A stretch of DNA of 32,000 nt from an uncultured Chloroflexia bacterium. GTDB lineage: Bacteria > Chloroflexota > Anaerolineae > Anaerolineales > Anaerolineaceae. Within the stretch, counting starts at the first letter, position 1. Each line of letters starts with the position of its first letter. Location of the stretch: positions 1,080,001 through 1,112,000 of the forward strand of contig OY969938.1 of assembly GCA_963704755.1 (NCBI GenBank), in the 5' to 3' direction. Below are positions 9,611-27,883 of this stretch, in pieces. A model generated the notes under the pieces. The model was not told where the DNA came from. It ran no database searches and was given only the letters and a program-made list of their open reading frames with translations. The position numbers were made by a program, and so were the translations under genes.

Positions 9611-10993
9611 ATGAGCTACGATCTGGTCATCAAAGAAGGCACCCTGGTCACGAGCGACGGGGTTTACCAGGCCGACCTGGCCGTTCAGGGTGAGAAAATT
9701 GCCGCCGTCGGCAGCGGGCTGGCCGGCCGACAAGAGATTTCGGCCGCGGGTAAGCTGGTTCTGCCCGGCGGAGTGGACCCGCACGTCCACCTGGAAATGC
9801 CCACCGCGGTCACCGTCACCAGCGACGATTGGCAAACCGGCTCGAAGGCGGCCGCCTTTGGCGGCACCACCACCGTGATCGATTTTATCGAACCGGGCTA
9901 TGAACACCAGCCCCTGCTGGAAGCCTTCCAGGATTATTTGAACAAAGCCCAGGGCCGCTCGAGCATCGATTTCAGCTTCCACATGACGCTTTGCGATGCC
10001 AGGGCAGACACGCTCGAGCAGGTCCCAGGTGTGGTCGCGGCCGGCTTGCCCTCGTTCAAAGTGTATACCACCTATCCCGGCTTTCACCTGAGCGACGAAG
10101 AACTGCTGGCAGCTTTGCATGCCGCCGCCCAGGCCCACGCTCTGGTCCTGGTCCATTCCGAATCGGACGCCATCCTTCAATCCGAGGTGGATAAACTGCG
10201 CCAGGCCGGGCGCCTGGCCGTCAGCGATTTTCCCGGCAGCCGCCCCGCCCTGGCCGAAAAAGAAGCCATCCAGCGCGTCCTCACTTTAGCTGACTATGCG
10301 AAGTCCGCTGTTTATATTGTCCACGTTTCCACCGCCGCCGGCGCAGCAGCGATCCGGCAGGCTCGCCGGCAAGGCCAGGCCGCCTGGGGTGAAACCTGCC
10401 CCCAGTACCTGCTGCTGGACGAAAGCAAGTTGAAGACCGGCGGTTTCGAAGGCGCTAAATTCGTTTGCAGCCCGCCCCTGCGCCTGCCGCAGTACCAGCA
10501 GGCCCTGTGGACTGCCCTGCAAGAGAACGGTTTGCAAACGGTCGGCACCGATCACTGCGCCTTCAATTTCGTCGGCCAGAAAGACCTGGGAAAAGATTCT
10601 TTCCTGGACATTCCCTCGGGTTTACCGGGGATCGAGCTGCGGCTGGCCCTTTTGTACACCTACGGGGTCAAACCCGGCCGTATCGGCCTCGAACAGTGGG
10701 TCGAGCGCTGCTGTACGGCCCCTGCACGCCTTTTTGGCCTCTATCCGCGCAAAGGTGCCCTGGTTCCTGGGGCAGATGCGGATGTGGTCCTGTTCGATCC
10801 GCAGCGCTCCCAGCCGGTCAGCCGGGCGATCCTGCACGAAAACGTAGATTACACCCCTTACGAAGGGCTGCAACTAGCCGGCAAAGTGACCGATACATTT
10901 TTACGCGGCCAGCCGCTGGTGCGCGACGAGCGCTGGGTCGCCGGGCCGGCCGGCGGCGTTTTTCTGCCCGGCACACCCTTTCAAGCTGGATAA
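9611..10993 (+). CDS. Cyclic amidohydrolase: D-hydantoinase/dihydropyrimidinase (HyuA/Dht-like)
   Basis: GGVDPHVHL metal site, SFKVY (carboxylated Lys), VHSE, HVST and GTDHC. 460 aa. The start abuts the regulator stop (TAAATG). Confidence 0.9.
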   Translation: MSYDLVIKEGTLVTSDGVYQADLAVQGEKIAAVGSGLAGRQEISAAGKLVLPGGVDPHVHLEMPTAVTVTSDDWQTGSKAAAFGGTTTVIDFIEPGYEHQPLLEAFQDYLNKAQGRSSIDFSFHMTLCDARADTLEQVPGVVAAGLPSFKVYTTYPGFHLSDEELLAALHAAAQAHALVLVHSESDAILQSEVDKLRQAGRLAVSDFPGSRPALAEKEAIQRVLTLADYAKSAVYIVHVSTAAGAAAIRQARRQGQAAWGETCPQYLLLDESKLKTGGFEGAKFVCSPPLRLPQYQQALWTALQENGLQTVGTDHCAFNFVGQKDLGKDSFLDIPSGLPGIELRLALLYTYGVKPGRIGLEQWVERCCTAPARLFGLYPRKGALVPGADADVVLFDPQRSQPVSRAILHENVDYTPYEGLQLAGKVTDTFLRGQPLVRDERWVAGPAGGVFLPGTPFQAG

Positions 10994-11009
10994 ATTGATT
11001 TTTTCCCTA

Positions 11010-11074
11010 AAGAGTTCCGAATATGGGTACTTGCGCGAGCTTCGCTCGCGCAAGTACCCATATTCGGAACTCTT
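11010..11074. repeat. Perfect 31-bp-stem palindrome immediately downstream of the hydantoinase gene (terminator-like position)
   Basis: aagagttccgaatatgggtacttgcgcgagc (11010-11040) is the exact reverse complement of 11044-11074, with a 3-nt loop. Confidence 0.9.
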
Positions 11075-11335
11075 ATCCTTCAGGCCAGACAGTCACAATA
11101 AAAGAAACACAAAGGGTTTTACGTCAACCCACGGTTTACAACAAGAAGTTGCAGTGATAAAATGAATTGTCCATACACTTCATCGCAATTTGACTAAACC
11201 GGCGTGGCAGCCCTTTCAGGATAATTTCCCCATCCGCAGCAGACAACCCAGCCCATACAGATGCAGTTTTCGCTTGAGAACTGTCCGCTTTCAAAACCTG
11301 TGAGGGAATTCGAATCCGTTTAAGGAGTTTTATTG

Positions 11336-11911
11336 ATGAGCGATACTACATTGCCTGACGATGAGGTCTTGAGATTAGGCGCACATATTAAAGGCAAGCG
11401 CAACGATCTTGGCATGAGCCTGCGCGACCTGGCGGCCGCGACCGGCCTCAGCGCCACATTTCTGAGCAATCTCGAACGTGGAATTGCTAATCCTACCCTC
11501 GATTCGCTGCGGAAAGTATCCAACGCACTCAACACGCCCATTCTGTACATGGCCAATACCATCCGCGAAACCAGCCCGGTAGTGCACAAAGCCCAGCGCC
11601 GCCAGCTCAACCTGTCCGCCGGGCACCTGCGCTACGAAATTCTCACCCCTACCCTCAATAAAAAAATGGTACTGTTCGAGGCCAAGGTCTGTTCGGAGGA
11701 CGGGAATATCGTGGTTGGCCCGTTGGCCGAGCCCACCGAAGAATGCCTGGTCATGCTCTCCGGGCGGATCAGCGTGTGCCTGTCCGGCCAATCCTACGAA
11801 CTGGAAGCCGGCGACAGCATTTATTTCGAAGGCCGCAGCCTGGAAAGTATTACCGTCGTCGGGGACGGAGAAGCCACCTATATTTCTGCCATCACGCCGC
11901 CAGTGTTCTAG
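11336..11911 (+). CDS. XRE-family HTH + cupin transcriptional regulator, paralogue 2
   Basis: MSLRDLAAATGLSATFLSNLERG and GDSIYFEGRS...ITPPVF, collinear with the 9056-9610 protein. ATG at 11336, with AAGGAG 8 nt upstream. Confidence 0.85.
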   Translation: MSDTTLPDDEVLRLGAHIKGKRNDLGMSLRDLAAATGLSATFLSNLERGIANPTLDSLRKVSNALNTPILYMANTIRETSPVVHKAQRRQLNLSAGHLRYEILTPTLNKKMVLFEAKVCSEDGNIVVGPLAEPTEECLVMLSGRISVCLSGQSYELEAGDSIYFEGRSLESITVVGDGEATYISAITPPVF

Positions 11912-12185: not shown

Positions 12186-13379
12186 GTGCAAACATACGAC
12201 GTCATCGTAATTGGAGGGGGATTCCTGGGCGTTGCTACAGCTTACGAGCTCGCCAAAACCGGCACGCGCACCCTTCTGCTGGAGGCTGGCGACCTGGGCA
12301 GCGGCACATCCGGTTCCTGTTCCGGCCGGGCCCAGGTATGCGAAGGGCATCTGGACCCCCTGAACATCGCCCTGATCCGCGGCGGGCTTGAAAAACACGA
12401 AACCCTGCCAGAAGAATTAGGCTGCGATTACGAATGGCACCGCGCCAGCCTGCTCCTGTTATTACGCAGCGAGCGGCTGCGCCAACAGTGGCTGGAACGC
12501 TCGGTTTTTCTGACCGAAGCCGGCATCCCTACCGAGGTGATCGACCGCGACAGTTTGCAGAAAGCCGAACCGCACCTGGACACAAGTACCTTACTGGGTG
12601 CTGCACACGCCATTGAAGGCAAGCTGAACCCCCTCAAGTTCGTCCAGGCTTATGGCGGGGCTGCCACCCGCCTGGGGGCAGACCTGCGGCGTAACGCCGC
12701 CGTCACCGGCATGGAAGTCTCCAACGGCCGCATCACCAGCGTAAAGACGGCCACCGAGACGTTTTCGGCCGGCACGGTGGCCGTGATGGCCGGCGCCTGG
12801 GAACCGGTCATCACCCGCATGGCCGGTGTGGAAGTGCCCATCCGCCACACCCACGCCGAATCGTTCATCACCGAGCCGATCCCGCCCATGATTTTCAACA
12901 ACATCGACCTGGCCGACAGCTACGAGATTATTCACGGCAAGCTGAAGGCGGTCACCATCGGCATTCACCCCGAGCCGAACGGCAGCCTGTCCATCGCCGA
13001 ATCGGTCACCCGCACCACCGAGCTGCACCACCGGGTCAGCTCGTGGAGCATCGCGGCCATGGCCAAAGAAATGGTCAAACTGTACCCCTTCCTGGAAAAA
13101 GTGCGCGTCATCCGCAGTTGGGGCCGGCCAACCTCCTTCACCCCGGACGAAGAGCCCCTGGTCGGCTGGGTGCCGCAACTGGAGAACCTGTACGTGGCTA
13201 CCAGCCTGATGGAAACCATCACCGTCGTCCCGCTGCTGTGCGAATGGATGGCCATGATGATCCGCGGCCAGAAGCCGCCCATGGATCTGGATCTATTTGC
13301 CCCGGCTCGTTTCCCCGAAAATTATCCATTCCCCGAAGATTCCGCTCCGCAGGCCAGGACCATCGATCATGCGAATTAA
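12186..13379 (+). CDS. FAD-dependent oxidoreductase, DAO family (beta/catalytic subunit of an HcnC / OoxB / sarcosine-oxidase-beta-like enzyme)
   Basis: N-terminal YDVIVIGGGFLGVATAYELAK dinucleotide fold. ~397 aa. GTG start with GGAGGG upstream. Confidence 0.85.
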   Translation: MQTYDVIVIGGGFLGVATAYELAKTGTRTLLLEAGDLGSGTSGSCSGRAQVCEGHLDPLNIALIRGGLEKHETLPEELGCDYEWHRASLLLLLRSERLRQQWLERSVFLTEAGIPTEVIDRDSLQKAEPHLDTSTLLGAAHAIEGKLNPLKFVQAYGGAATRLGADLRRNAAVTGMEVSNGRITSVKTATETFSAGTVAVMAGAWEPVITRMAGVEVPIRHTHAESFITEPIPPMIFNNIDLADSYEIIHGKLKAVTIGIHPEPNGSLSIAESVTRTTELHHRVSSWSIAAMAKEMVKLYPFLEKVRVIRSWGRPTSFTPDEEPLVGWVPQLENLYVATSLMETITVVPLLCEWMAMMIRGQKPPMDLDLFAPARFPENYPFPEDSAPQARTIDHAN

Positions 13380-13674
13380 TCCCTCCAACTCACTCTTACC
13401 AGAAATTCAAAGGGGCAAAACCGTACAAATTACGGTAGACGGCCGGCCGGTAGAGGCTTTCGAAGGCGAGACTATCGCCGCCGTTCTGCTGGCCCTGGGC
13501 ATCTGGGCCTTCCGCCACAGCCCAAAGAACAAAGAAGAGCGTGGCATTTACTGCGGTATGGGTATTTGCTACGAATGCCTGGTGACCGTGGATGGCATCC
13601 ACGCCGTGCGGGCTTGCGTCACTCCCGTGGCGGACGGCATGCAGGTGGATACCTGCCAGGAGATGGCATTATGA
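13369..13674 (+). CDS. Small (2Fe-2S)-binding subunit (HcnA / Fer2_4-like)
   Basis: VDGRPVEAFEGETIAAVL...CGMGICYECLV...AC cysteine pattern. The ATG at 13369 overlaps the preceding gene by 11 nt. The longer ORF-track start at 13297 lies inside the preceding gene. Confidence 0.75.
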   Translation: MRINPSNSLLPEIQRGKTVQITVDGRPVEAFEGETIAAVLLALGIWAFRHSPKNKEERGIYCGMGICYECLVTVDGIHAVRACVTPVADGMQVDTCQEMAL

Positions 13675-15086
13675 GCGAAACCTGCCAACTCGCCGTCATT
13701 GGAGCCGGCCCGGCCGGCCTGGAAGCCGCCATTGCTGCCGCCGAAGCGGGCGTAGATACGATCCTCATCGACAGCGCTCTGCGGGCAGGCGGCCAATATT
13801 ACAAACCCCTGCCGGCCGCTTTCCGGCCCCTGCGCCAAACCGGGACGGAAAAGGAAGGCGAAAGCCTGGTCGCCCGGCTGGAACGTAGCGGCGCCAAACG
13901 GATCTACGACGCCCTCACCTGGGGGCTGTTCACCGAAGAAGATGGGAACGGCTACCGGCTGTGCCTGTCGGTGGCCGGCTCGCCCCGCCAGATCCACGCG
14001 GACCGGCTGGTCCTGGCCGGCGGCGCCTACGATACCCCCCTGGCTTTCCCGGGCTGGACCCTGCCGGGCGTATTAACCTGCGGCGCCGCCCTGAACCTGC
14101 TCAAGAACCAGCGCGTCGCGCCTTTCAAGCGGGTGCTGGTCAGCGGGACCGGGCCGCTCTCGCTCTCGGTCGCGGCCCACCTGGTCGCCGCCGGCGTCGA
14201 GGTTGCCTGCCTGTGCGAAGCCAACCACATTCCGTTGAGCGCAGCCGGCTATGGCCCGCAAATGTTAGGGCATGGACACCGCATCACCGAGGGCATTCAA
14301 TATGTCTCTACGCTCATCGGCGGGGGCACGCGCGTCCGCATGGGCTGGTCGGTCGTCGAAGCGCGCGGAAAAGAGCGCGTCGATCAGGCCGTCATCGCAA
14401 AGCTGGATAATTCCGGCGCTCCCATTCCCGGCAGCGAGCAGGTCCTTGCAGTAGATGCCGTCATCTGCGGCTTTGGGCTCACCCCCAACAACGGCATGGC
14501 CCGCATGCTTGGCTGTCAATTCGCAGTGGACCCCGCCAATGGAGAATGGGTTCCCCGGCGCGACGGCCGCATGCAGACCAGTTTACCGGGAGTGTACATG
14601 GCCGGCGATTGCGTCCAGATCAACGGCGCCGAGAACGCGCGCCTGGAAGGGCGCCTGGCCGGCACCGCGGCCGCCCTGGACTGCCAGCGCATCTCCCCCG
14701 CCCAGGCGGACCACACTTTCGCCCAGATCCAGCCGGCCTTGAGCCGCCAGCAGCGCTACGGGCGCATGCTGGCCAAACTGTTCCCGCTTAAAGCGGGCCT
14801 GCGCACCCTGGCTCACGACGAGACCTACGTCTGCCGCTGCGAAGAAGTGACCCAGGGCATGGTCAAAGCCGCCATCGCCGCCGGGGCAACCACGATCGGT
14901 GAGGTCAAGATGGTCACCCGGGTGGGAATGGGCAACTGCCAGGGCCGCATTTGCGAACAGACCATCGCCCGCATCATCGCTCAGGAACTTTCCAGCGATC
15001 CAGCTTCTGCCGGCATGTACACCATCCGCCCACCCCTGCACCCCCTGCCGATCGGCTTCTTCGCCAAAGATGAGCAGGAAATTTAA
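13671..15086 (+). CDS. FAD/NAD(P)-binding oxidoreductase subunit with a C-terminal BFD-like [2Fe-2S] domain (HcnB / OoxA-like alpha subunit)
   Basis: LAVIGAGPAGLEAA, a second Rossmann fold (VLVSGTGPLSL), GDC, and a C-terminal CRCEEVT...GNCQGRIC. ATGA overlap with the upstream stop. Confidence 0.85.
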   Translation: MSETCQLAVIGAGPAGLEAAIAAAEAGVDTILIDSALRAGGQYYKPLPAAFRPLRQTGTEKEGESLVARLERSGAKRIYDALTWGLFTEEDGNGYRLCLSVAGSPRQIHADRLVLAGGAYDTPLAFPGWTLPGVLTCGAALNLLKNQRVAPFKRVLVSGTGPLSLSVAAHLVAAGVEVACLCEANHIPLSAAGYGPQMLGHGHRITEGIQYVSTLIGGGTRVRMGWSVVEARGKERVDQAVIAKLDNSGAPIPGSEQVLAVDAVICGFGLTPNNGMARMLGCQFAVDPANGEWVPRRDGRMQTSLPGVYMAGDCVQINGAENARLEGRLAGTAAALDCQRISPAQADHTFAQIQPALSRQQRYGRMLAKLFPLKAGLRTLAHDETYVCRCEEVTQGMVKAAIAAGATTIGEVKMVTRVGMGNCQGRICEQTIARIIAQELSSDPASAGMYTIRPPLHPLPIGFFAKDEQEI

Positions 15087-15109
15087 CTACTCAGCCACCG
15101 CAAAAGAGT

Positions 15110-15287: not shown

Positions 15288-15294
15288 ACACATG

Positions 15295-15536
15295 TATTCA
15301 CATCCTGATGTCCGCCAGGACGTCGGTAAAACCCCACAACGAACACCCTCTGGTCCCCTCATACCCAGAGCTGGGTCGTGGCCAGGCAATCGCCTGGCTG
15401 CGCCGAAATTATCCATAGTGTTTCCGCGAATTACACACAACGGGCACAGGATCTTTATTCGTATTTTACCGGTACGGGGTTTTACCGACAAACAGTACTT
15501 CTCATCCAACAATCCCAATGCAGGAGAATAGATTCC
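15295..15536 (+). promoter_or_regulatory. Long candidate 5' leader with a closing long-range helix (possible cis-regulatory RNA)
   Basis: gtcggtaaaacccc (15322-15335) is the perfect complement of ggggttttaccgac (15476-15489). An alternative partner, ttttaccg, lies at 15464-15471. Internal hairpins include gccagg-caatcg-cctggc and ctctgg...ccagag. ORFs here have no recognisable protein features. Confidence 0.3.
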
Positions 15537-16337
15537 ATGGAATACACCGGGTACCTTGATTTCTGGTTCACCGACCGGCCCATGGTCGAACGGATAGAGC
15601 CGATGGTAAAACTCGGCTTTCGCCATTTAGACGTGTGGTCCTGGCGCCAGCAGCCCATGGCCGAACTGGCCGCCGAATGCCGCCGCCTGGGCGCAGTGCT
15701 TAACTCCGTCTTCGATGACCACATGGGCAACCTGGCCGACCCGAACGATAACGAGCTGACTTTACGCACCTGGTCCGAGAGCCTGGAAATGGCTACCCGC
15801 TTTGGCGTCGAGCACCTCTTCCTGTTTTCCAACCAGGTGGACCTGATCGACGGGCATACCTGGACCCGGCGCCTTTCCTCCAATTTCACTGAAGCCGAGC
15901 AATACGCCAATACGCTCAAGCAGACCGAAAAGATCCTCAAGCTGGCCGAGCGAACCTCCGTCAAAGTTTGGATCGAAGCGCTGAATGAGTTTCACATCAA
16001 GGGCGGCGTGCTGGTTCACAACCACGAGATGGCCGCGGATTGGGTGCGCCGCATCGACCACCCGCAGTTGCGCATGGTCTTCGACTGCTATCACCAACAG
16101 CGCGGTTCCGGTGACCTGATCTGGGGCCTGGAACAATATGCCGGCCTGTACGAGGCCGTCCACATTGCCGACGTACCCACCCGCCAGGAGCCCGGCACGG
16201 GTGAAATCAACTTCACCAATATCCACAAAAAGCTGGTGGAATTGAACTACGACGGCTTTATCGGACTCGAATTCTACCCATCCACCAACGAAGCCGAAGC
16301 GCTGGAAACTGTAAAAAAGATCATGCCGCTCGGCTGA
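15537..16337 (+). CDS. Xylose-isomerase-like TIM-barrel protein, hydroxypyruvate isomerase (Hyi/OtnI) family
   Basis: The C-terminal block [13 protein letters not shown]...[19 protein letters not shown]...[11 protein letters not shown] matches the Hyi pattern (YDIYH...[15 protein letters not shown]...Y.GW.G.EY.P) as I recall it. ATG at 15537 after AGGAG. Confidence 0.8.
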
Positions 16338-16362: not shown

Positions 16363-17160
16363 ATGCCGATTCGCAGGCTCAACCATATTTTCAAAGCGGA
16401 TGGACGCGCGCTAATCGTCGCCTTTGACCACGGCCTGACCGAAGGCCCGACCAAGGGCATGGAGAACGCCGGCGAGACCCTCGAAAAAATCGCAAACGGC
16501 GGCGCAGACGCCATTCTGACCAGTTACGGTGTGGCCAGCCGCTTCGCCCGGCAAATTTCCGGCCTGGGGTTGATCCTGCGCCTGGATGTCGGCGGCACCA
16601 AAATCGGCAAGATGGGCCCCGGCAAACCGTTTTTCAGCGTGGAAGATGCCTTGCGCCTGGGCGCCGACGCCGTCGCCGTTTCCGCTTTCCCGGGTACGCC
16701 CCAGGAATCCGAGACGATGCAGACCTTGGCCCACACCATTGGCGCAGCCCATCCCTGGGGCATGCCGGTCATGGCCGAGATGCAGCCGGGTGGCTTCGAT
16801 GCCGGCCCGGAATACAATACGGCCGAGAACATCGCCATTTCCGCCCGGGTTGCCGCCGAACTGGGCGCCGACTGGGTTAAAGTGCCGTTCGTTAAGGCCT
16901 TCGACCAGGTCGTACGGTCATGTTACGTCCCGGCGGTCATGTTGGGCGGGGTGAAAGTCAACGACGAAAGCCTCTTGCTCGAAATGGTCTGGGGCGCAGT
17001 AGCTTCAGGCGCGGCCGGGGTAGCCATCGGGCGCAATATTTTCCAGGCCGAAGACCCCCAGGCGATCGTCACCGCCATTAGCGCGATCCTGCACCAGGGC
17101 GCCAGTGTGGACCAGGCCGTCGAGATCTACCGCCAGCACCACGCCGGCCAGAAACACTGA
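16363..17160 (+). CDS. Class I aldolase of the DeoC/FbaB (DhnA, LsrF, ADH-synthase) family
   Basis: LIVAFDHG, a Schiff-base lysine context DWVKVPF, and [10 protein letters not shown] at the C-terminus. 265 aa. Confidence 0.85.
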
Positions 17161-18839: not shown

Positions 18840-18868
18840 TTGACGTTAATCCCTCGGTTCGCTATAAT
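18840..18868 (+). promoter_or_regulatory. Near-consensus sigma-70-type promoter for the Mch-like 3 operon
   Basis: TTGACG (18840-18845), 17 nt, TATAAT (18863-18868), about 90 nt upstream of the ATG at 18960. Confidence 0.6.
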
Positions 18869-20022: not shown

Positions 20023-21336
20023 ATGCTTATCCTCCCATCCTGGTTAATCGCAAGCGCAAAAGAAAAGCCCCTGGCCTGCTGGGGTGTTCGGGTCGAGGGC
20101 AGCGAAATCACTACCGTGGCTGCCAACGCCGAACTTAAACAGCGCTTCCCTAACGAAGAAGTCTGGGAGGCGCCCGGGCAGGTATTAGCCCCCGGCTTCG
20201 TCGATGCCCACACTCACCTGTACGGAATCCTGGCACACGGTATCCCGTTATCCAAAGCGCCTTCCGGGTTCATGCCCTTCCTGGATGAATTCTGGTGGCC
20301 GCTGGTCGAAAACCGGCTGGATTGCAAAATGATCTGCGCCGCCACGGCCGCCAACTGTGCCGCCATGATCCGCTCCGGCATCACGTCGTTCTATGACTGT
20401 GAAGAAGCGCCCAACGCCCTGCCTGGGATTCTGAACGCCCAGGCCGAGGTGGTTCGTGCGGCCGGGCTGCGCGGGATCCTATCCTTCGAAGCCACCCAAC
20501 GGCTGGGCAAAGCGATTGGCCAGTCGGGCCTGGAAGAAAACGCCGCCTTCACCAAAGCCGCCCGCGAGCGGAACGACCTGGTCAGCGGGATGATGTGTTT
20601 TCACACCACCTTTACCTGTGACTCCGACTTTATCCGCCAGGCCTACGATCTGGCGGAACAATGCGATTCCCTGGTGCATGCGCACTGCTCCGAAGGCACC
20701 TACGAGCCGGATTACACGTCCGAAAAATTTGGCCAACGCCCTATCCAGTTCTACGACCGGCTGGGCGTACTGGGCGAGCGCAGCCTGCTCTCGCAATGTG
20801 TCCAGGTGGACCGCGAGGAAATCGAGCTGCTGGCCGCCCGCAAAGCCCGTGTGACCCACATGCCGCTTTCGAATTGCGAGGTCGGCGGCGGAATTGCCCC
20901 GGTGCCGCAAATGGTCGCGGCCGGCATCACCCTGGGGCTGGGCTCGGACGGGTACATCACCGACTTCTTCGAGGTAATGCGCGGCGCTTTCCTGATCCAT
21001 AAAGCCGACCAGCTTGACCCGCAGGTCATGCCCGCCGGGCTGGTCTGGTACCTGGCAACCGAGGGCGGCGCGGCCGCCCTCGGCCTGAACAAGGTTGGCC
21101 GCCTGGCCCCCGGCTGGCAAGCCGACCTGCAATTATTCAAGGCGAACCTGCCCACCCCGCTGGCCGAACACAACCTGTACGACCAGACTCTACTGTACTG
21201 TCACCAAACCGATGTAACCGCTACCATTGTGGCCGGAAAGACCCTGATGCGGGATGGTGTCATCGCGGGTAGCGACCAGGCTGCACTGCTGGCCAATACC
21301 CATGAAGCCGCCCTGCGCCTGTGGAACGCGGCTTAG
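20023..21336 (+). CDS. Amidohydrolase-superfamily aminohydrolase/deaminase (COG0402), SsnA-like
   Basis: GFVDAHTHLYG (HxH), HAHCSEG and GLGSDG. Several blocks resemble E. coli SsnA as I recall it (FWWPL.. vs LWWRLD; DFFEVMRGAFLIHK vs DMFEEMKFAFFKHR; GWQADLQLF...LPTPL vs GYKADLTICDYNSPTPL). ATG at 20023 after GGAGA. Confidence 0.8.
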   Translation: MLILPSWLIASAKEKPLACWGVRVEGSEITTVAANAELKQRFPNEEVWEAPGQVLAPGFVDAHTHLYGILAHGIPLSKAPSGFMPFLDEFWWPLVENRLDCKMICAATAANCAAMIRSGITSFYDCEEAPNALPGILNAQAEVVRAAGLRGILSFEATQRLGKAIGQSGLEENAAFTKAARERNDLVSGMMCFHTTFTCDSDFIRQAYDLAEQCDSLVHAHCSEGTYEPDYTSEKFGQRPIQFYDRLGVLGERSLLSQCVQVDREEIELLAARKARVTHMPLSNCEVGGGIAPVPQMVAAGITLGLGSDGYITDFFEVMRGAFLIHKADQLDPQVMPAGLVWYLATEGGAAALGLNKVGRLAPGWQADLQLFKANLPTPLAEHNLYDQTLLYCHQTDVTATIVAGKTLMRDGVIAGSDQAALLANTHEAALRLWNAA

Positions 21337-21373: not shown

Positions 21374-21880
21374 ATGGATATTGAATTTATTCTGAACGAA
21401 AAACCTGTAAAGATCGAAGCCCCGGCCGACCGCACGCTGTTGAATGTGCTGCGGGACGACCTGGGACTGACCGGCACCAAGTGTGGCTGTGACACCGGCG
21501 ACTGCGGGGCTTGCTCCGTTTTGCTGGACGACAAACTGGCCAAATCCTGCCTGCTCAAGATCGCCGACATCCAGGGCCGCAAAGTCACCACCATCGAAGG
21601 TATCCACGGCGAAGACGGCGGCATCAGCGACCTGCAGGAATTATTCTTGCAGAACGGCGCCGTCCAATGCGGCTACTGCATCCCGGCCATGGTTCTGGCC
21701 GGCGAAGCCCTGCTGCGCCATAACCCCACTCCCGACCGCGATGAAATTCGTAACGGGATCTCGCATGTGCTGTGCCGCTGCATCGGCTACCAGCAAATCA
21801 TCGACGCCGTCGAACAGACCGCCCACCAGCGCCAGAAAACCAGGAAGCAATCGCAATCCAGCCTGGAGAGTGCCTTATGA
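21374..21880 (+). CDS. Xanthine-dehydrogenase/aldehyde-oxidase family small subunit with two [2Fe-2S] clusters (CoxS-like)
   Basis: CGCDTGDCGACSV and QCGYCIPAM...CRCIGY cysteine motifs. ATG at 21374; the upstream part of the ORF-track ORF overlaps the previous gene. Confidence 0.9.
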   Translation: MDIEFILNEKPVKIEAPADRTLLNVLRDDLGLTGTKCGCDTGDCGACSVLLDDKLAKSCLLKIADIQGRKVTTIEGIHGEDGGISDLQELFLQNGAVQCGYCIPAMVLAGEALLRHNPTPDRDEIRNGISHVLCRCIGYQQIIDAVEQTAHQRQKTRKQSQSSLESAL

Positions 21881-24210
21881 GCGAATATCGATACATTGGC
21901 AAACGCTCTTACCCCGAAGACGGCCTGGCCAAAGTGACCGGGCAGGCCCGCTATGTAGGCGATTATTCCATTCCCGGCATGCTGTACGCCAAAGTATTGC
22001 GCAGCCCTGTACCCCACGCGACTATCCGTCACCTGGACGTCTCGCCTGCTCTCAAGGTCCCCGGCGTGCTGGCCGTCGTCACCGCCGAAGATTTTGTCAA
22101 CCACGGCAATTGGGGCTGGCCTATCAAGGATGCTTACGCAATCGCCTGGAAGAAAGTGCGCTACGTTGGTGACCCGATCGCGGCCGTCGCGGCCGAGACC
22201 GAGGAAGCCGCGCTGGCAGGTATCCGCGCCATCCGGGTCGAACTCGAAGAACTGCCCGTGGTCAGCGATATCCACCACGCCCTCGATCCGGACGCTCCTA
22301 TTATTCCGGATACCGAAGAACCGGGCAAAGGCAACATCACCAATACCCACCTGGTGCGCAACGGCAACCCCGACCCGATCCTGGCCAAAAGCGACATCGT
22401 ATTGGACGAAAGCTACTTCTTCAAGCACCAGGAGCACGCTTACATGGAAACCGAGGCAGCCCTGGCCATCCCCGAACCGGGCGGCGGGCTGACTTTTTAC
22501 GCCAACGACCAATCGCCCTTCATCAACCGGGATAACCTGGTCATGCTGCTGGGACTGCCCATGCCCAAAATACGGGTGATCCAGGCTCATGTGGGCGGAT
22601 CCTTCGGCGGTAAAGACGATATCGGCTACCAGAACTGCGCCCAGGCCGGCGCGCTGGCCTTGAAGACCATGCGGCCCGTCCGCCTGGTGCTGACCCGCAC
22701 CGAATCTTTCCTGGCTTCGTACAAGCGCGAGGCCATGGACGTCCACATCAAGCTCGGCGCGACCGCGGATGGCGAATTGCAAGCGGCCCGGGTAGAAATG
22801 CTGGCCGACAGCGGGGCCTATTCTTCCATGACCCCTCTGGCCTCCTGGCGCGCTTCAGTCCACGCTGCCGGACCTTACCGCTACCGGGCCGTCCACGTGG
22901 ATACGACCTCGGTCTATACCAACAACAACTATTCCGGCGCTTTCCGCGGCTTTGGTAACCCCCAGGCCATCGGCGCCATCGAACAGGCCATCGACGAGCT
23001 GGCCTACCGGCTACACCGCGACCCGATCGACCTGCGCTTGCAGAACTGCCTGAAGAGCTACGACATCACCATGACCGGCAACCGGATCAACCACACCGTT
23101 CACCTGACCGAATGCCTGAACCTGGTGCGCGAACACTCCGAATGGGACCGCAAACGGGCCAAATACGCTTCCGGCCAGGCCGGTGACGTGCGGCGCGGTA
23201 TTGGGGTGGCCTGTTACTTCCACGGCAGCAGCCTGGGTGGAGAGGGCGCAGACTACGCCACCACCACCATGAACATCGAATTGGATGGCTCGGTCACGAT
23301 TACTTCCGGCCTGACCGATTTCGGCCAGGGCAGCCGCACCGTATTCACCCTGATCGCGGCCGAAGAGTTGGGTGTGGATAAGAAACGCATCCACCTGCTG
23401 CGGCCCGATACCCAGACCGCCATCGAATCAGGCGCGACGGTGGCTTCACGCGCGTCCATCATGGGCGGCAACGCCACCCGCATCGCGGCCAATCGCTTGA
23501 ACCAGATCCTGCTCTGGGCCGCTGCGCGGGCCTTCCAATGCCAGCCCGACCAGGTCCACCGTCACGAAGAGTACTTCATCGGCCCAGGCGAAGAGCAGAT
23601 GACCTTCGACGAGGTAAGCCGTTCAGCCCGCGATATGGGCTTTTCGCTGTACACCCAGGGTAAATGGGAAATGCCACCCTTCAAATGGGATTTCGACAAC
23701 GGCACCGGCGTCCCTTACCATTGCTACACCTTCGGCGCCCAGGTAGCCGAGGTCGAAGTCAACCTGGCCACCGGCGTTACCAAAGTGCTCGGGGTTTGGG
23801 CGGCTCACGATGGCGGCCGGATCATCTTCCCCCAGGGAGCCATGGGCCAGATGTATGGCGGCGTGGCCATGGGGCTGGGATACGGCCTCACTGAAAATGT
23901 CAGCTTCCATAACGGCTATCCGCAGGCGCTGAACCTGCACAGCTATCACATCCCCACCGCCCACGACGTGCCCCCCATCGATGGCAATTTCATCCAGGTC
24001 GACAAACCGGATGGGCCTTTTGGCGCGCTCAACCTGGCCGAGCCCATGATGATTTCCACTGCGCCGGCTATTGCGAACGCTATTTTCCAGGCAACCGGCA
24101 AGCGCTGGCGCAAATTCCCGCTGACCCCCAAAGTGATCCTGACCGGCAGCGACGACCCCGACCGGGACACCTCGGAAGACTGCCGCAGAGGCCTGGGGCT
24201 GATCCCCTGA
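21877..24210 (+). CDS. Xanthine-dehydrogenase-family molybdopterin-binding large subunit (Mo hydroxylase)
   Basis: GKVTGQARYVGD N-terminus, GGSFGGK, FRGFGNPQ and a C-terminal NLAEPMM (active-site Glu context). 777 aa. ATGA overlap with the small subunit, and GGAGAG RBS. Confidence 0.9.
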   Translation: MSEYRYIGKRSYPEDGLAKVTGQARYVGDYSIPGMLYAKVLRSPVPHATIRHLDVSPALKVPGVLAVVTAEDFVNHGNWGWPIKDAYAIAWKKVRYVGDPIAAVAAETEEAALAGIRAIRVELEELPVVSDIHHALDPDAPIIPDTEEPGKGNITNTHLVRNGNPDPILAKSDIVLDESYFFKHQEHAYMETEAALAIPEPGGGLTFYANDQSPFINRDNLVMLLGLPMPKIRVIQAHVGGSFGGKDDIGYQNCAQAGALALKTMRPVRLVLTRTESFLASYKREAMDVHIKLGATADGELQAARVEMLADSGAYSSMTPLASWRASVHAAGPYRYRAVHVDTTSVYTNNNYSGAFRGFGNPQAIGAIEQAIDELAYRLHRDPIDLRLQNCLKSYDITMTGNRINHTVHLTECLNLVREHSEWDRKRAKYASGQAGDVRRGIGVACYFHGSSLGGEGADYATTTMNIELDGSVTITSGLTDFGQGSRTVFTLIAAEELGVDKKRIHLLRPDTQTAIESGATVASRASIMGGNATRIAANRLNQILLWAAARAFQCQPDQVHRHEEYFIGPGEEQMTFDEVSRSARDMGFSLYTQGKWEMPPFKWDFDNGTGVPYHCYTFGAQVAEVEVNLATGVTKVLGVWAAHDGGRIIFPQGAMGQMYGGVAMGLGYGLTENVSFHNGYPQALNLHSYHIPTAHDVPPIDGNFIQVDKPDGPFGALNLAEPMMISTAPAIANAIFQATGKRWRKFPLTPKVILTGSDDPDRDTSEDCRRGLGLIP

Positions 24211-24271
24211 CCCGCCGAAGAGTTATTTGTACCTATTTACCGGTTGTTTTGAACTGTTTACAGAAACAATG

Positions 24272-24359
24272 AAACCACAGATTTATACAGATCAACATAG
24301 ATAGCGGACAAGGTTAGAAGTCTTTAAAATCTGTGTCCATCCGTGTTCATCTGTGGTTT
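24272..24359. repeat. Solo copy of the core of the 169-bp repeat, framed by an 11-bp inverted repeat, directly upstream of the LLM gene
   Basis: 24323-24355 (tttaaaatctgtgtccatccgtgttcatctgtg) is identical over 33 nt to 2601-2633. aaaccacagat (24272-24282) and atctgtggttt (24349-24359) are exact reverse complements. Confidence 0.9.
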
Positions 24360-24381
24360 ATTTATCCCCTATGGAGGAAGT

Positions 24382-25401
24382 ATGACCCAAAGAATGGCGT
24401 TGTATATGCAAGACAAGCACCCCATCCAATACGAGTTGGAGATGGCAAAGTATGCCGAGGATCGCGGTTTCAGCGAAATCTGGCAAGCAGATACGCGCCT
24501 GGCGCGTGACTGCATTGCCATGATGAGCGCGTTCCTGGCCCGTACCAGCCGGATGCGCTTCGGTTCGGCTGTTTTACCCATCTGGACTCGCAATCCGGCA
24601 GTAATCGCCTCCACCTGGAGCACCATGTGGGAACTGGGCGGAAAATATGATGGTCGCGGCCGGGTAATGCTGGGCCTTGGCGCCTGGTGGGAACCGATCG
24701 CCGGGCGGGTTGGCGTTCACCGCGTTAAACCGCTGAAAGCCATGCGCGAGCATATCGAAGCCATTCGCCAGTTGTTCACCATGGAAGAAGTCAGCTACGA
24801 GGGTGAGTTCGTCCACCTGGACCGCATCCGCCTGGACGTAGCCTTTGGCGACACCAGCCCACGCGATATTCCCCTGTACATCGGCGCAACCGGCGACCAG
24901 ATGCTCGAAATGTCCGGCGAGATTTGTGATGGCGTGGTCCTGAATTACGTCGTTTCGGTCGATTACATCCGCAAGGCGGTCGCCCTGGTCGAAAAAGGCG
25001 CCAAAAAAGCCGGCAAGACCCTGGCCGACGTGGACCGACCCGAACTGCTGGTGTGCTGCCTGTCCGATATGGATCCCAAAGCCGCGATGGCCGAGGGCAA
25101 GAAACTGGTGGCTTATTACCTGGCCACCGAACCGCATATTATGAAAGCCTCCGGCGTGGACGAGAGCCTGCTGGAAAAAGTCCAATCGATGATGAGCTGG
25201 CCCGCGACCGAAGAAGATTACATCCGCACCAGCCAGGTCATCCCGGATGAGGTGGTCCGCAATGTGATGGCCGTCGGCACCACCGAAGAATGCCGCGCCA
25301 AGGTCAAGGAATACATCGACGCCGGCGTGACCTGCCCCATCCTCTACCCGATGATGGACGACATCAAACCGGTCGTCGACGCTTTTGCCGATTGGGGCTA
25401 G
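24382..25401 (+). CDS. Luciferase-like (LLM) flavin/F420-dependent oxidoreductase, Mer/F420-reductase-like class
   Basis: 339 aa TIM-barrel LLM pattern ([19 protein letters not shown]..., [17 protein letters not shown]). ATG at 24382 after GGAGG. The cofactor cannot be decided from sequence reading. Confidence 0.8.
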
Positions 25402-25630
25402 ATACCTTCGGCCAATCGCCAGATTCACGGCTGAATCCCTGGCGCCTGTTTACCGTTTGTACTTTACAAGCATTCCACAATCAACCACTACCCTGGCCGG
25501 CGAAAGAACATCCTGATTCGAGGTGTCCGCAGAGGCGAAACTCTGCAAACGCCTCAAATCAGGAAACCTTTTTACTGTAAGCCAGGTAGTTAAGTAGCCA
25601 TTGTAACCACCCAGGCAAGTTCAAGGGTGA

Positions 25631-25685
25631 GGGTACTTTTGTTGATTTTCGCGTGCGTAGCACGCGAAAATCAACAAAAGTACCC
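25631..25685. repeat. Perfect 25-26-bp-stem palindrome upstream of the carbamoyltransferase gene
   Basis: gggtacttttgttgattttcgcgtg (25631-25655) is the exact reverse complement of 25661-25685. The arm sequence is related to those at 15110 and 28105. Confidence 0.9.
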
Positions 25686-25745
25686 GACCCTTTCCGAATA
25701 GCCGGGCAGCTACAAACCATTTATAAAAATACAGGAGAAACTAAA

Positions 25746-26738
25746 ATGCAATCAACCTTGTTTGGCAAGAGTTTCATCTCCACTGAAGACTGGTCCAACG
25801 ACGAAATCGAATTGCTGTTGGATGTAGCCGGTGACCTGAAACGCCGCTTCTCAATGGGCGAGCTTCACGACCAGATTCTGCGCAGCAAGACTTTATTCAT
25901 GCTCTTCTTTGAAGAATCCACCCGCACGCGCAACTCATTCGAAGCCGGCATCACCCAACTGGGCGGTCACGCTCACTATTTGACCCCCTCGGCCACCCAG
26001 ATCGGCCACGGTGAGAACGCCAAAGACACCGGCACCGTCCTTGGCCGCTACGGCCATGCTATCGCCGTGCGTGACTGCCGCACCGATATCGGCCAGGCCT
26101 ACCAGTACGATCTGGCCAAATACGCCGGTATCCCCGTCATTTCGATGCAGGACGATGTGGACCATCCCTGCCAGGCGATGGCCGACCTGTTGACCATCCG
26201 CGAGAAATTCGGGCAGGACCTGCGCGGCAAGAAATTCGTCATTTCCTGGACCTACGCCCCCAAGTACGTCCGCCCACTTTCGATGCCCCAGGCCCTGATC
26301 ATGCTGATGACCCGCTTCGGCATGGACGTCACTCTGGCGCACCCCAAAGGCTTCGAAATGATGCCCAAGTGCCTGGATATCGCCCGCAAGCACGCCGAAG
26401 AAAATGACACCAAGTTCGAAGTCGTCAACGACATGGACGCGGCCTTCGAAGGCGCAGATATCTGCTACGCCAAGTCCTGGGGCCCCATCACGGTCTCCGA
26501 AGAGCCCAAAGAGGTCCAGGCCATGTGCGACGAGCACAAGGATTGGATCTGCGACGAACGCCGCATGGCCCTCTCCAACAAAAAATCGATCTACATGCAC
26601 TGCATGCCCATCGACCGGGGTTACGAAGCTACCGACGCGGTGGTAGATGGCCCTCACTCCGTAATCTATGACGAAGCCGAGAACCGCTTACACGTGCAAA
26701 AAGCGATCATGGCGCTCACCATGGGTGGCAGGATTTAA
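25746..26738 (+). CDS. ygeW: YgeW-type (knotted) carbamoyltransferase of the ATCase/OTCase superfamily
   Basis: ESTRTRNSF carbamoyl-phosphate motif, DHPCQAMADL and YMHCMP. The block LMTRFGMDVTLAHP matches E. coli YgeW as I recall it. ATG at 25746 after AGGAGA; the ORF-track GTG at 25653 lies inside the palindrome. Confidence 0.85.
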   Translation: MQSTLFGKSFISTEDWSNDEIELLLDVAGDLKRRFSMGELHDQILRSKTLFMLFFEESTRTRNSFEAGITQLGGHAHYLTPSATQIGHGENAKDTGTVLGRYGHAIAVRDCRTDIGQAYQYDLAKYAGIPVISMQDDVDHPCQAMADLLTIREKFGQDLRGKKFVISWTYAPKYVRPLSMPQALIMLMTRFGMDVTLAHPKGFEMMPKCLDIARKHAEENDTKFEVVNDMDAAFEGADICYAKSWGPITVSEEPKEVQAMCDEHKDWICDERRMALSNKKSIYMHCMPIDRGYEATDAVVDGPHSVIYDEAENRLHVQKAIMALTMGGRI

Positions 26739-27883
26739 TGGATAAAAAACGCTTAATCGCCTTCACCCAGGATATCATCCGGGTGCGGAGCATGAGCGGC
26801 GAGGAACAGGCAGTCGTAGCCCGCATCAAAGCTGAAATGGAAACTCTCGGCTTCGATCGCCTCTGGGTGGACGATTTTGGCAGTGTAATTGGCCTGATCG
26901 AAGGGGCCAAACCCGGCCCGACTCTGCTGATGGATGGCCATTGCGACATCGTGGACGCGCGCGCCTCCGATTGGAAACACGATCCCTTCGGCGCGGTCAT
27001 CGAAGATGGCTGGCTTTACGGCCGCGGTGTGGCCGACATGAAAGGCGGACTGGCGGGCATGATCTACGCCGCCGCCTCGGTTGACCGCAGCAAGCTGGCC
27101 GGCAAAGTCGCCGTCAGCGCCACGGTTCTGGAAGAGGTCATGGAAGGCGTGGCCCTGAAACAGGTCATGGACGTGCTCAAACCGGCCGGCGTAATCATCG
27201 GCAAATCGACCAATTTTGCCCTCAACCGCGCCCAGCGCGGGCGAGCCGAAATCGTCATCGAGACCGTCGGGAAATCGGCCCACTCCTCCTCCCCCCAGGC
27301 CGGCGTCTGCGCCGTCCATAAGATGATCGAATTGATGAACGCGGTCGAGGCCATTCCCATGTCCTCCAACCCGATCATGGGGAAAGGCCAGTTCTGCCTG
27401 ACCGACATCATCTCCGAACCCTTCCCCGGGCACTCGGTGGTTCCCAATCGCTGCCGGGTTTCTTACGACCGCCGCACAATCCCCGGTGAGACACCTGAAA
27501 GCCTGCTCGAATCCATCCACGCCCTGCCGGAACTCAAAGATATCGAGTACACCGTCACCATCCTGGATGGTGAAGAGAAGACCTATACCGGCAAAACCCT
27601 CAAAGGTTTGAAGTTCTTCCCGGCCTGGGCCTTCGAAGAAGACAATTTCCTGGTGGATGCGGCCTTACGCGGGCTGCGCGCCAGCGGATTTGATCCCAAA
27701 CTGGGCTCCTTCGGCTTCTGCACCAACGGCTCCTACAGCGCCGGCGTTGCAAACGTACCGACGATCGGTTTTGGCCCCGGCACCGAGCCGGATGCCCACA
27801 CTGTCAACGAGCACGTGAAAGTCAGCGACCTCGAACGAGCCGCCGATGGCTTCCTGGGCATGATCCAGTCTATCTTAAGCTAG
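26738..27883 (+). CDS. ygeY: M20-family metallohydrolase, YgeY-like (deacylase/carbamoylase type)
   Basis: MDGHCDIV, GRGVADMKGG, QRGRAEI...GKSAHSS and GFGPGTEPDAHTVNEHV. It is collinear with E. coli YgeY from memory. The start overlaps the ygeW stop (TAATG). Confidence 0.8.
   Translation: MDKKRLIAFTQDIIRVRSMSGEEQAVVARIKAEMETLGFDRLWVDDFGSVIGLIEGAKPGPTLLMDGHCDIVDARASDWKHDPFGAVIEDGWLYGRGVADMKGGLAGMIYAAASVDRSKLAGKVAVSATVLEEVMEGVALKQVMDVLKPAGVIIGKSTNFALNRAQRGRAEIVIETVGKSAHSSSPQAGVCAVHKMIELMNAVEAIPMSSNPIMGKGQFCLTDIISEPFPGHSVVPNRCRVSYDRRTIPGETPESLLESIHALPELKDIEYTVTILDGEEKTYTGKTLKGLKFFPAWAFEEDNFLVDAALRGLRASGFDPKLGSFGFCTNGSYSAGVANVPTIGFGPGTEPDAHTVNEHVKVSDLERAADGFLGMIQSILS

Follow-up and report, generated by a model that had tools for sequence, protein, structure and literature searches.

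The 32-kb window analysed here (the whole stretch of DNA under study, on contig OY969938.1 of an uncultured member of the Anaerolineales) carries a catabolic island of about 29 kb which, with a probability that we put at roughly 0.55, serves the breakdown of a purine-type bicyclic N-heterocycle by a route distantly homologous to the reductive urate (2,8-dioxopurine) pathway. The strongest argument for a homologous pathway of this type is the conservation of a core composed of a hydantoinase, an SsnA-like amidohydrolase and a molybdenum (Mo) enzyme of the xanthine dehydrogenase (XDH) family, often accompanied by a carbamoyltransferase and an M20 hydrolase, around a reductase that varies from locus to locus; the presence in the same island of three paralogues of the cyclohydrolase Mch suggests an undescribed route of N-heterocycle breakdown. 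A first-pass annotation of this DNA, which had read it as a rearranged purine/urate module of the E. coli ygeW-ssnA type lacking several usual partners, is partly supported: what it observed was largely right and its interpretation partly so, while the names that it used were too specific.

The urate pathway was solved by two studies in 2025 (Li et al., PMC12507026; Liu et al., bioRxiv 10.1101/2025.04.24.650524): XdhD/DOPDH reduces urate to 2,8-dioxopurine, which is dearomatised by YgfK or UacX; SsnA and HyuA open the two rings of the reduced 2,8-dioxopurine; the ureido groups are removed by YgeW, through phosphorolysis (with ATP formed via YqeA), and by YgeY; finally, YgeX converts diaminopropionate to pyruvate. 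For the genes of classical clostridial purine fermentation, our literature search returned only the 2012 C. acidurici genome paper.

The genes of the window were called by Pfam and NCBIfam scans on every long open reading frame (ORF); the window is nearly all coding, on the plus strand, with some 26 genes, and the genes named in the first-pass annotation were found where it had placed them or within a few codons, all on that strand. The ygeV-ygfT region of E. coli was fetched for direct protein comparison, and a scan of a genome collection with an alignment of Mch3 orthologues yielded 79 related loci (coded L0xx), compared by tblastn and by clustering of all ORFs. The relatives of the window are metagenome-assembled genomes of Anaerolineales and other Chloroflexota.

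Core Enzymes of the Island

The core genes and the promoter-like site within them are the following.

9611–10993, plus strand: D-hydantoinase/dihydropyrimidinase of HyuA type (TIGR02033)
18840–18868, plus strand: promoter-like site TTGACG-17-TATAAT ahead of Mch3 (11/12 consensus matches; a consensus match only)
18960–19937, plus strand: Mch3 (TIGR03120, 257.9 bits, cut-off 228.8)
20023–21336, plus strand: COG0402 amidohydrolase, SsnA-like (best NCBIfam model SsnA, below cut-off)
21374–21880, plus strand: [2Fe-2S] small subunit of the Mo hydroxylase (PF00111, PF01799)
21877–24210, plus strand: XDH-family molybdopterin large subunit (PF01315, PF02738, PF20256)
24343–25401, plus strand: Mer-like luciferase-family oxidoreductase (LLM; PF00296, 210.6 bits)
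25746–26738, plus strand: orphan carbamoyltransferase, between N-acetylornithine carbamoyltransferase (AOTCase) and YgeW
26738–27883, plus strand: YgeY-family M20 hydrolase (NF009555, 404.1 bits, cut-off 321)

The hydantoinase-type enzyme proposed earlier at 9611–10993 is confirmed by a score of 487.7 bits on the D-hydantoinase/dihydropyrimidinase model TIGR02033 (cut-off 393.25) and by 40% identity to E. coli HyuA; the regulator gene that abuts it accompanies it also in L082, where the pair is 51% identical. Since the same model is a dihydropyrimidinase equivalog, this result also suits a reductive pyrimidine pathway (for uracil, thymine or an orotate-type substrate), in which the XDH-family enzyme would be a pyrimidine hydroxylase, the dihydropyrimidinase would be followed by the M20 protein as a ureidopropionase-like hydrolase, and the carbamoyltransferase would conserve energy from N-carbamoyl-beta-alanine. 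Reductases of the PydA type (PF01180) do occur in two related loci, L056 and L084, and the homology of the urate enzymes to PydA and PydB has been stressed by Li et al. (PMC12507026). The Pyd pathway (PydA, PydB, PydC) likewise consists of a ring reductase followed by dihydropyrimidinase-type and ureide-cleaving hydrolases, but the window also encodes, beyond these, a Mo enzyme, a carbamoyltransferase, the Mch paralogues and another amidohydrolase that opens a ring. A monocyclic ring does not need two ring-opening amidohydrolases and two ureide-cleaving enzymes, a set which fits a bicyclic diureide; moreover, the second amidohydrolase scores best on the SsnA model, and the three Mch paralogues would be left without a role, so that a pyrimidine is regarded as an improbable substrate.

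The close homologues of this second amidohydrolase are named "amidohydrolase family protein" or "MTA/SAH deaminase" in public sources, never SsnA; its orthologues (64–67% identical) adjoin hydantoinase and XDH genes in L082, L084 and L085. The two XDH-family subunits are encoded by genes whose stop and start codons overlap as ATGA; the small subunit is 39% identical to E. coli XdhC, the large one 31% to XdhA and 30% to XdhD, and no FAD subunit for the Mo hydroxylase is found in the window.

The last two genes of the run had been described as a translationally coupled YgeW-YgeY pair, and their coupling is evident from the TAATG overlap of stop and start. The M20 hydrolase (33% identical to E. 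coli YgeY) passes one of the two YgeY models, NF009555, and fails the older TIGR03526 (281 bits, cut-off 321.5). The carbamoyltransferase, 34.5% identical to E. coli YgeW and carrying the STRTR, HPxQ and HCxP motifs, scores higher on the models of AOTCase (NF003384, 274.7 bits, cut-off 288) and ornithine carbamoyltransferase (OTCase; TIGR00658, 253 bits, cut-off 281) than on those of YgeW, passing neither; its PDB matches likewise place AOTCase (3kzc/3m5c, about 227–229 bits) above E. coli YgeW (3q98, 201 bits). AOTCase and YgeW, between which the protein is placed by score, are both described as knotted enzymes.

These scores give some room to an explanation in which the window holds no single pathway, Mch and the Mer-like LLM being true one-carbon (C1) enzymes, dependent on tetrahydromethanopterin (H4MPT) or folate, next to an AOTCase/ArgE-type arginine pair and to unrelated neighbours; the carbamoyltransferase lies just below the AOTCase cut-off, and AOTCase is its best PDB match. 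Its partner, on the other hand, reaches only 136 bits on the ArgE model (cut-off 298), compared with 404 on that of YgeY, and the carbamoyltransferase is linked to XDH and Mch genes across three phyla, with orthologues of 58–63% identity in the Mch1 clusters of Spirochaetota and in L084. An arginine pair was rejected on these grounds, namely the sub-threshold NF003384 score, a partner of the YgeY and not the ArgE type, and conserved XDH, LLM and Mch neighbours; nor did the curated models place the proteins in question in the ordinary OTCase, ArgE/DapE or guanine deaminase families.

Conserved Linkage and the Variable Reductase Slot

The order TIM barrel–aldolase–FGGY kinase–Mch3–amidohydrolase–XDH small subunit–XDH large subunit–LLM–carbamoyltransferase–M20 is the same in L002–L005, from other Anaerolineales, with amino acid identities of 70–91% over the run from Mch3 to M20 (LLM 88–91%, carbamoyltransferase 88–89%, Mch3 82–84%, XDH large subunit 75–76%, amidohydrolase 70–73%); in L008 and L019 the run is partly kept, rearranged yet still linked. 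Comparative synteny thus bears out the grouping, which recurs in L084 with the carbamoyltransferase (63%), a PF01180 protein (DHO_dh), the hydantoinase (54%), the amidohydrolase, XDH FAD, FeS and Mo components (58%) and M20 (36%). L082 and L085 combine hydantoinase, amidohydrolase, E1 alpha, E1 beta, E2, short-chain dehydrogenases/reductases (SDRs) and XDH; taken jointly, L082, L084 and L085 have co-localised orthologues of the SsnA-like enzyme (64–67%), hydantoinase (45–54%) and XDH (53–61%). In L056, from Sphaerochaeta, genes for an SsnA-like (42%) and a YgeY-like protein and for a carbamoyltransferase (58%) are found with those for an XdhD-like subunit and a DHO_dh that bears two [4Fe-4S] domains, and an SDR-Mch1-E1-E2-E3 group is embedded among these urate-type genes.

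The claim that the usual partners are lacking and replaced is upheld: YgeX, YqeA, YgfK, YgfM, YqeB and YqeC gave no tblastn match in the window, and YgeX, YqeA, YgfK, YqeB and YqeC none by blastp in the 79 related loci, so that their absence is a consistent one and not just a matter of where the window ends, although the search covered only the window's 32 kb of a 4.87-Mb contig and these loci, and not the window's own flanks.

Besides the lack of a tblastn match to YgfK, no PF01180 protein was found by the Pfam scans of the window. The LLM groups with enzymes of the F420 type: each of the 17 NCBIfam families that it matches best is of this type, with Mer in first place (154–156 bits on Mer models whose cut-offs are 276–349), FMN-type families reach at most 42 bits, and the top PDB match is Mer as well (8qq8, 124 bits). 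The reductase slot is interchangeable, being taken by YgfK in E. coli, by a PF01180 DHO_dh in L056 and L084 and by the LLM in the window. It has been shown that in C. difficile the PF01180 enzyme UacX replaces YgfK, and in the same study Chloroflexota SsnA clusters were noted to have, in the absence of YgfK/UacX, a putative F420 reductase of the luciferase family (Li et al. 2025, PMC12507026). The exchange of YgfK for an LLM has thus been published, in one line of bioinformatic comment. Because orthologues of the core are elsewhere paired with PF01180, the known YgfK substitute, the Mer-like LLM of the window is a candidate for the YgfK/UacX role and probably fills this slot.

Mer delivers hydride to a carbon bonded to a ring nitrogen. 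By analogy, the reduction of 2,8-dioxopurine (C6=N1 to CH2-NH, compare ureidomethyl-hydantoin) would be a reaction of the same kind. The variability of the slot makes "variant pathway", as proposed earlier for the reuse of the ureide-processing core, the right description of a conserved module homologous to the reductive urate cluster.

The Chloroflexota arrangement mentioned by Li et al. shares with the window the phylum and a PF00296 LLM beside an SsnA-type amidohydrolase and an XDH homologue, and the window probably represents the same or a closely related arrangement. That variant is presented in one sentence and a coloured similarity network, with neither a test nor a gene map, Mch and partners of the E1/E2 or HcnABC-like kind going unmentioned, and the supplement of the paper gives no details on the Chloroflexota clusters; since the window amidohydrolase falls below the TIGR03314 cut-off, it may lie outside the IPR017700 set analysed there.

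Compared with the urate clusters of E. coli, C. sporogenes and C. difficile, the island has in common an XDH-family Mo enzyme, a COG0402 amidohydrolase, a hydantoinase, a carbamoyltransferase of the aspartate/ornithine carbamoyltransferase fold and a YgeY-family M20 hydrolase, clustered (in E. coli in the order ygeW-ygeX-ygeY-hyuA-yqeA ... ygfK-ssnA-ygfM-xdhD), partly translationally coupled and with a varying reductase slot. It differs in that its proteins are only 26–40% identical to those of E. coli, with the SsnA, YgeW and XdhD models failed; in that YgfK/UacX, YgfM, YgeX, YqeA and YqeB/C are missing, the reductase slot being occupied by the Mer-like LLM, and the Mo enzyme lacks the Glu606 loop; and in the addition of three Mch proteins, of E1/E2 together with LplA, of a dehydrogenase resembling HcnABC and of a module of kinase, aldolase and isomerase.

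The Mch Paralogues

To our knowledge, the Mch family has been thought to be confined to methane and C1 metabolism, and no paper describing Mch homologues in catabolic clusters of this kind was found in our literature searches. Besides Mch3, the window encodes two further members.

1178–2140, plus strand: Mch1 (TIGR03120, 317.5 bits, cut-off 228.8; PF02289)
6069–7031, plus strand: Mch2 (TIGR03120, 312.3 bits)

All three exceed the equivalog cut-off of TIGR03120, despite mutual identities of only 32–39%; Mch3 matches the M. kandleri enzyme (PDB 1qlm) with 214 bits, which makes it about as distant from it as the paralogues are from each other, and its orthologues in Anaerolineales are 55–93% identical. 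In a neighbour-joining tree of 83 sequences, five bacterial clades stand apart from the archaeal sequences. The catalytic Arg183 and Glu186 are invariant in 83 of 83 sequences, and several positions that do not vary within the archaeal set have been exchanged throughout the bacterial clades (E140 to Q, K120 to D). A "Lys94" of Mch was set aside with no conclusion drawn, as the archaeal sequences of the set themselves differ there.

Each clade has neighbours of its own. Mch1 belongs to a bacterial clade (Clostridia, Spirochaetota and the window) associated with SDR and E1/E2; Mch2 falls in a separate one with L006, L011, L012, L027, L047 and L068, located downstream of E2 or with the DAO trio; Mch3 is accompanied by the kinase/aldolase/isomerase module; and the fifth and largest clade is found with polysaccharide-deacetylase-like proteins, a Bmp/PnrA ATP-binding cassette (ABC) transporter, a COG0402 amidohydrolase, the DAO trio, a pterin-binding protein and an LLM. 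Among the 53 bacterial Mch loci of at least 10 kb, COG0402 amidohydrolases are present in 42, DAO in 30, PyrRedox in 25, the TIM-barrel isomerase in 15, XDH in 14, the aldolase in 13, FGGY in 12, M20 in 10, and carbamoyltransferase and E1 in 9 each; none of the catabolic neighbours of the bacterial clades occurs in the archaeal Mch loci. Across Chloroflexota, Clostridia and Spirochaetota, the Mch-linked partners are COG0402 amidohydrolases, XDH, carbamoyltransferases, lipoate-dependent E1/E2 complexes and HcnABC-like dehydrogenases.

Within the window, signals of an operon are a near-consensus promoter and a ribosome-binding site (AAGGAG, before the ATG at 18960) ahead of Mch3, together with overlapping stop and start codons within the run; promoter and ribosome-binding site suggest that Mch3 is the first gene of a run which ends with M20. 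The Mch genes are no bystanders, as Mch3 heads this operon-like run and in three phyla the paralogues are linked with the same families of enzymes. Among the loci with an SsnA-like/XDH core, hydantoinase and Mch complement each other in part, in what is a small sample: only the hydantoinase is present in L082, L084 and L085, only Mch in L026, L028, L047, L056 and L068, and both in the window, L002, L005 and L011.

The same data bear on whether Mch and the LLM might be genuine C1 enzymes without a common pathway around them. With the H4MPT-dependent Mch and Mer (PDB 1qlm and 4gvq; 8qq8 and 1z69) the window proteins share the Mch fold and catalytic Arg183/Glu186, and Mer is the nearest characterised relative of the LLM; known Mch and Mer both act on a carbon that bridges two ring nitrogens. 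The three copies do pass the equivalog with their catalytic residues kept. The remainder of the H4MPT pathway is missing, no Fae, Mtd, Ftr or Fhc gene being found in the window or in the bacterial Mch loci; moreover, the paralogues number three in one island, the bacterial sequences form five clades, archaeal-invariant positions are replaced, and the neighbours are amidohydrolases, Mo hydroxylases and other catabolic genes lacking in archaeal loci. A genuine C1 pathway was accordingly rejected, and a chance assembly of C1, arginine and unrelated genes appears very unlikely.

Bacterial Mch paralogues of catabolic clusters are named methenyltetrahydromethanopterin cyclohydrolase by NCBI and JGI. 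A further recurrent cluster, seen in Anaerolineaceae (L034–L052), consists of polysaccharide deacetylase, Bmp ABC transporter, Mch, COG0402 amidohydrolase, DAO/PyrRedox/Fer2_4, PF00809 and a Mer-like LLM, with genes for a PfkB kinase, a metallo-beta-lactamase-fold and a uronate-isomerase-like protein upstream; its substrate could be a methylated or otherwise modified nucleoside.

Accessory Modules

The modules that surround the core comprise the following genes, of which those of the DAO trio are given with their ORF bounds, the true starts possibly lying further in.

396–1166, plus strand: SDR oxidoreductase, opening the SDR-Mch1-E1-E2 module (PF00106, 205.8 bits)
2839–3825, plus strand: E1 alpha of a lipoate-dependent dehydrogenase of 2-oxoacid/acetoin type (PF00676)
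3825–4803, plus strand: E1 beta, frameshifted (NF006667)
4823–6061, plus strand: E2 lipoyl acyltransferase (PF00364, PF02817, PF00198)
7790–8806, plus strand: lipoate-protein ligase LplA (TIGR00545, 340.8 bits, cut-off 280)
12186–13379, plus strand: DAO of an HcnABC/opine-oxidase-like dehydrogenase
13297–13674, plus strand: Fer2_4 of the HcnABC-like trio
13566–15086, plus strand: Pyr_redox_2+BFD of the HcnABC-like trio
15378–16337, plus strand: xylose-isomerase-like TIM barrel (Pfam/NCBIfam scans)
16363–17160, plus strand: class I aldolase, DhnA/MJ0400/LsrF-like (Pfam/NCBIfam scans)
17279–18787, plus strand: FGGY kinase (Pfam/NCBIfam scans)
28217–29209, plus strand: aldo-keto reductase (PF00248)

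The replacement genes named earlier are thus all present, with three Mch proteins above the TIGR03120 cut-off, the LLM at 24343–25401 and the HcnABC-like trio at 12186–15086. The series SDR-Mch1-E1 alpha-E1 beta-E2 is kept in Clostridia and Spirochaetota (L027, L028, L032, L047, L056 and L068) and, with SDR not detected, in L026; E1 alpha scores 316.6 bits on TIGR03182, below the cut-off of 393.85, its nearest PDB entry being human pyruvate dehydrogenase E1 alpha, and LplA occurs also in the Clostridia clusters L026 and L028. As L028 encodes E3 and PduL too, the product of E1/E2 is probably an acyl-CoA used for substrate-level phosphorylation. Orthologues of Fer2_4 (62%) and PyrRedox (54%) adjoin the uric-acid-like core in L084, where DAO is only 29% identical; the TIM-barrel isomerase, aldolase and FGGY genes lie directly upstream of the Mch3 orthologue in the loci bearing all three; the E1/E2 cluster of L082 includes a TIM-barrel orthologue (68%); and orthologues of the aldo-keto reductase (72–75%) directly follow Mch3 in L006 and L009–L012. 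Linkage to the core extends also to the HcnABC-like genes, the isomerase of TIM-barrel type and E1/E2.

Proposed Route of Degradation

The reactions and the substrate proposed in this section are deduced from protein families and gene order. A two-subunit Mo enzyme working without an FAD subunit would add or remove a ring hydroxyl; the Mer-like LLM, probably F420H2-dependent, would then supply the dearomatising hydride, the task of YgfK/UacX; one ring would be opened by the SsnA-like amidohydrolase and the other by the hydantoinase/dihydropyrimidinase; finally, the carbamoyltransferase would release one ureido group by phosphorolysis, giving carbamoyl phosphate, and the YgeY-family M20 enzyme would hydrolyse the second. 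The parts assigned to the other genes are more speculative. The Mch paralogues would probably hydrolyse cyclic amidine rings (N-CH=N) of intermediates without an 8-oxo group, or else deal with the C1 unit set free, and the HcnABC-like dehydrogenase, TIM-barrel isomerase, SDR and E1/E2 with LplA, which are candidates for a YgeX-free processing of the end product because they travel with the core, would probably stand in for YgeX by turning the small fragment that remains, an amine or a keto compound, into an acyl-CoA.

A more far-reaching proposal can be put forward only tentatively: bacterial Mch of Anaerolineales, Clostridia and Spirochaetota may have been recruited to open the N-CH=N imidazole or imidazoline ring of intermediates derived from purines, as the 8-H counterpart of the hydantoinase step, in association with a Mer-derived F420-dependent reductase that would provide the dearomatising hydride, so that in the resulting breakdown of purines or nucleosides 8-hydroxylation and YgeX would be bypassed and the products would feed the lipoate-dependent E1/E2.

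Evidence That Complicates the Assignment

Several observations weigh against a purine-type reductive pathway, the first of them concerning the family models. The hydantoinase and YgeY (NF009555) pass curated models, while SsnA, YgeW and the Mo hydroxylase fail, so that three of the five marker names given earlier are over-specific. SsnA is the top NCBIfam family of the amidohydrolase at 20023–21336, yet the protein misses both SsnA models (NF005540, 272 bits against a cut-off of 444; TIGR03314, 261 against 455.5) and is only 26% identical to E. coli SsnA, and the name itself does not hold; the same applies to YgeW, as both models of this protein are failed by the carbamoyltransferase (NF005538, 222.9 against 453; TIGR03316, 213 against 500).

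The Mo hydroxylase at 21374–24210 does consist of XDH-family small and large subunits, as claimed, but its assignment to the selenium-dependent type is not borne out. The large subunit is below the cut-off of every XDH equivalog model (TIGR03311, 442 against 830; TIGR03313, 273 against 1102) and lacks the active-site loop, specific to XdhD, in which the model of Li et al. 2025 (PMC12507026) places Glu606. In its PDB matches it is nearer to 4-hydroxybenzoyl-CoA reductase, whose alpha subunit is the best (345 bits), and to nicotinate dehydrogenase, which follows with CoxL, than to the solved xanthine dehydrogenases (R. capsulatus XDH, 233 bits); 4-hydroxybenzoyl-CoA reductase is a reductive dehydroxylase. 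Unlike the window enzyme, a fused FeS+Mo enzyme encoded directly after the Mch3 orthologue of L019 (13126–16062; 36% identical to E. coli XdhD, 599 bits) has an XdhD-type loop with an equivalent of Glu606. A mapping of the bovine xanthine oxidoreductase residues Glu802 and Arg880, meant to place the Mo subunit, was dropped, since the positions could not be confirmed.

To these points may be added that neither YgeX nor carbamate kinase nor the selenium-trait genes (SelD, YqeB, YqeC) are found in the window or in the related loci; that the Mch3-sugar module occurs in L006 and L012 with no XDH, LLM or carbamoyltransferase gene nearby, and thus part of the island may serve another substrate; and that E1 beta is split by a +1 frameshift at about 4528–4553. 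Its overlapping ORFs 3825–4553 and 4468–4803 match positions 3–237 and 237–323 of NF006667, the downstream frame resuming the conserved ...TLFPLDKETI..., and the gene is either a pseudogene or affected by an indel error typical of long-read assemblies. Many split genes are likewise seen in L084 and L085 (ENA loci).

No transporter is encoded among the genes of the window, and the related loci give a mixed picture of the substrate. L028, from the cultured Clostridium sp. 1001271st1 H5, has an NCS2 nucleobase permease (Xan_ur_permease, 235 bits), and Bmp/PnrA-type ABC transporters are present in about 25 Mch loci; these systems point to nucleobases or nucleosides. Clostridia loci contain energy-coupling factor (ECF) transporters with a weak RibU-like S component (37 bits), nine loci a RibD_C-like reductase (weak, 26 bits) and some a PF00809 pterin-binding protein; the RibD_C-like and PF00809 proteins leave room for ribosylaminopyrimidine or pteridine intermediates, and together with the RibU-like ECF parts they fit a pterin, flavin or ribosylaminopyrimidine substrate equally well.

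The same enzyme logic might act on a ring-opened nucleoside (ribosylaminopyrimidine) or on a compound of the pterin, lumazine or flavin type in place of urate or xanthine; a reduced-pteridine-like substrate would then be kept by Mch and the Mer-like LLM, and kinase, aldolase and isomerase would dispose of a side chain derived from ribityl or ribose. Mch, Mer-like LLM and PF00809 all come from families with characterised members that bind reduced pterins, and they co-occur in loci of Anaerolineaceae, Clostridia and Spirochaetota; the position of the isomerase-aldolase-FGGY group immediately before Mch3 agrees with such a side chain, and the Mo subunit is in detail neither XDH- nor XdhD-like. 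The RibD_C, pterin-binding and ECF genes are nevertheless all missing from the window, the permease of L028 is one for nucleobases, and the core recurs with a PF01180 reductase of the kind used on 2,8-dioxopurine in C. difficile; a substrate of this class is considered rather unlikely, although less so than a pyrimidine, and a purine-type heterocycle is preferred.

Other Features of the Window

The remaining features are regulatory genes at the start of the window and around the hydantoinase, and a fusion gene on the opposite strand.

41–358, plus strand: fragment of a GntR-type regulator with a C-terminal FCD domain, truncated by the window start
9020–9610, plus strand: HTH_3 + cupin regulator, abutting the hydantoinase gene (PF01381, PF07883)
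11333–11911, plus strand: second HTH_3 + cupin regulator (Pfam/NCBIfam scans)
29322–31859, minus strand: DhaM-HPr-EI fusion of 845 amino acids, DhaM being EIIA-Man

GntR/UTRA regulators are also found in several Clostridia Mch loci, and the second HTH-cupin regulator is kept beside DAO or Mch3 modules in L002–L012. The DhaM-HPr-EI fusion is a phosphoryl donor of the phosphotransferase system type for dihydroxyacetone kinase, with neither DhaK nor DhaL in the window; it may be related to a triose from the neighbouring aldolase module. Two AT-rich tandem arrays occupy the gaps between Mch1 and E1 alpha (2192–2802; unit of 169 bp, 3.6 copies, 95% matching) and between Mch2 and LplA (7040–7465; unit of 131 bp, 3.3 copies, 95% matching); they may be mobile repeats, regulatory arrays or features of the assembly. 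No riboswitch or other RNA family was found in the window with Rfam at gathering thresholds.

Significance

The recruitment of Mch paralogues, E1/E2 and HcnABC-like enzymes was not found reported in the searchable papers, and is the part worth pursuing. If the proposed assignment is true, the reductive purine pathway, solved only in 2025, extends from gut bacteria to environmental Chloroflexota, and the different reductase (probably F420-linked) and different end processing of this version bear on the question of what redox carriers, and what steps of energy conservation, are required. The occurrence of a related cluster, L028, in a cultured isolate makes the hypothesis directly testable. If Mch homologues open the rings of catabolic intermediates, a new function would be added to a C1-confined family. 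There is, in addition, an annotation hazard: as public records give the name Mch to the homologues found in catabolic clusters, and as these score above the cut-off of the curated equivalog, the inference of a C1 pathway from them may mislead, and H4MPT-dependent C1 pathways may be wrongly inferred in metagenome-derived genomes of Anaerolineae, Clostridia and Spirochaetota; should the ring-opening role prove true, "mch" in such genomes would be no marker of H4MPT-dependent C1 metabolism.

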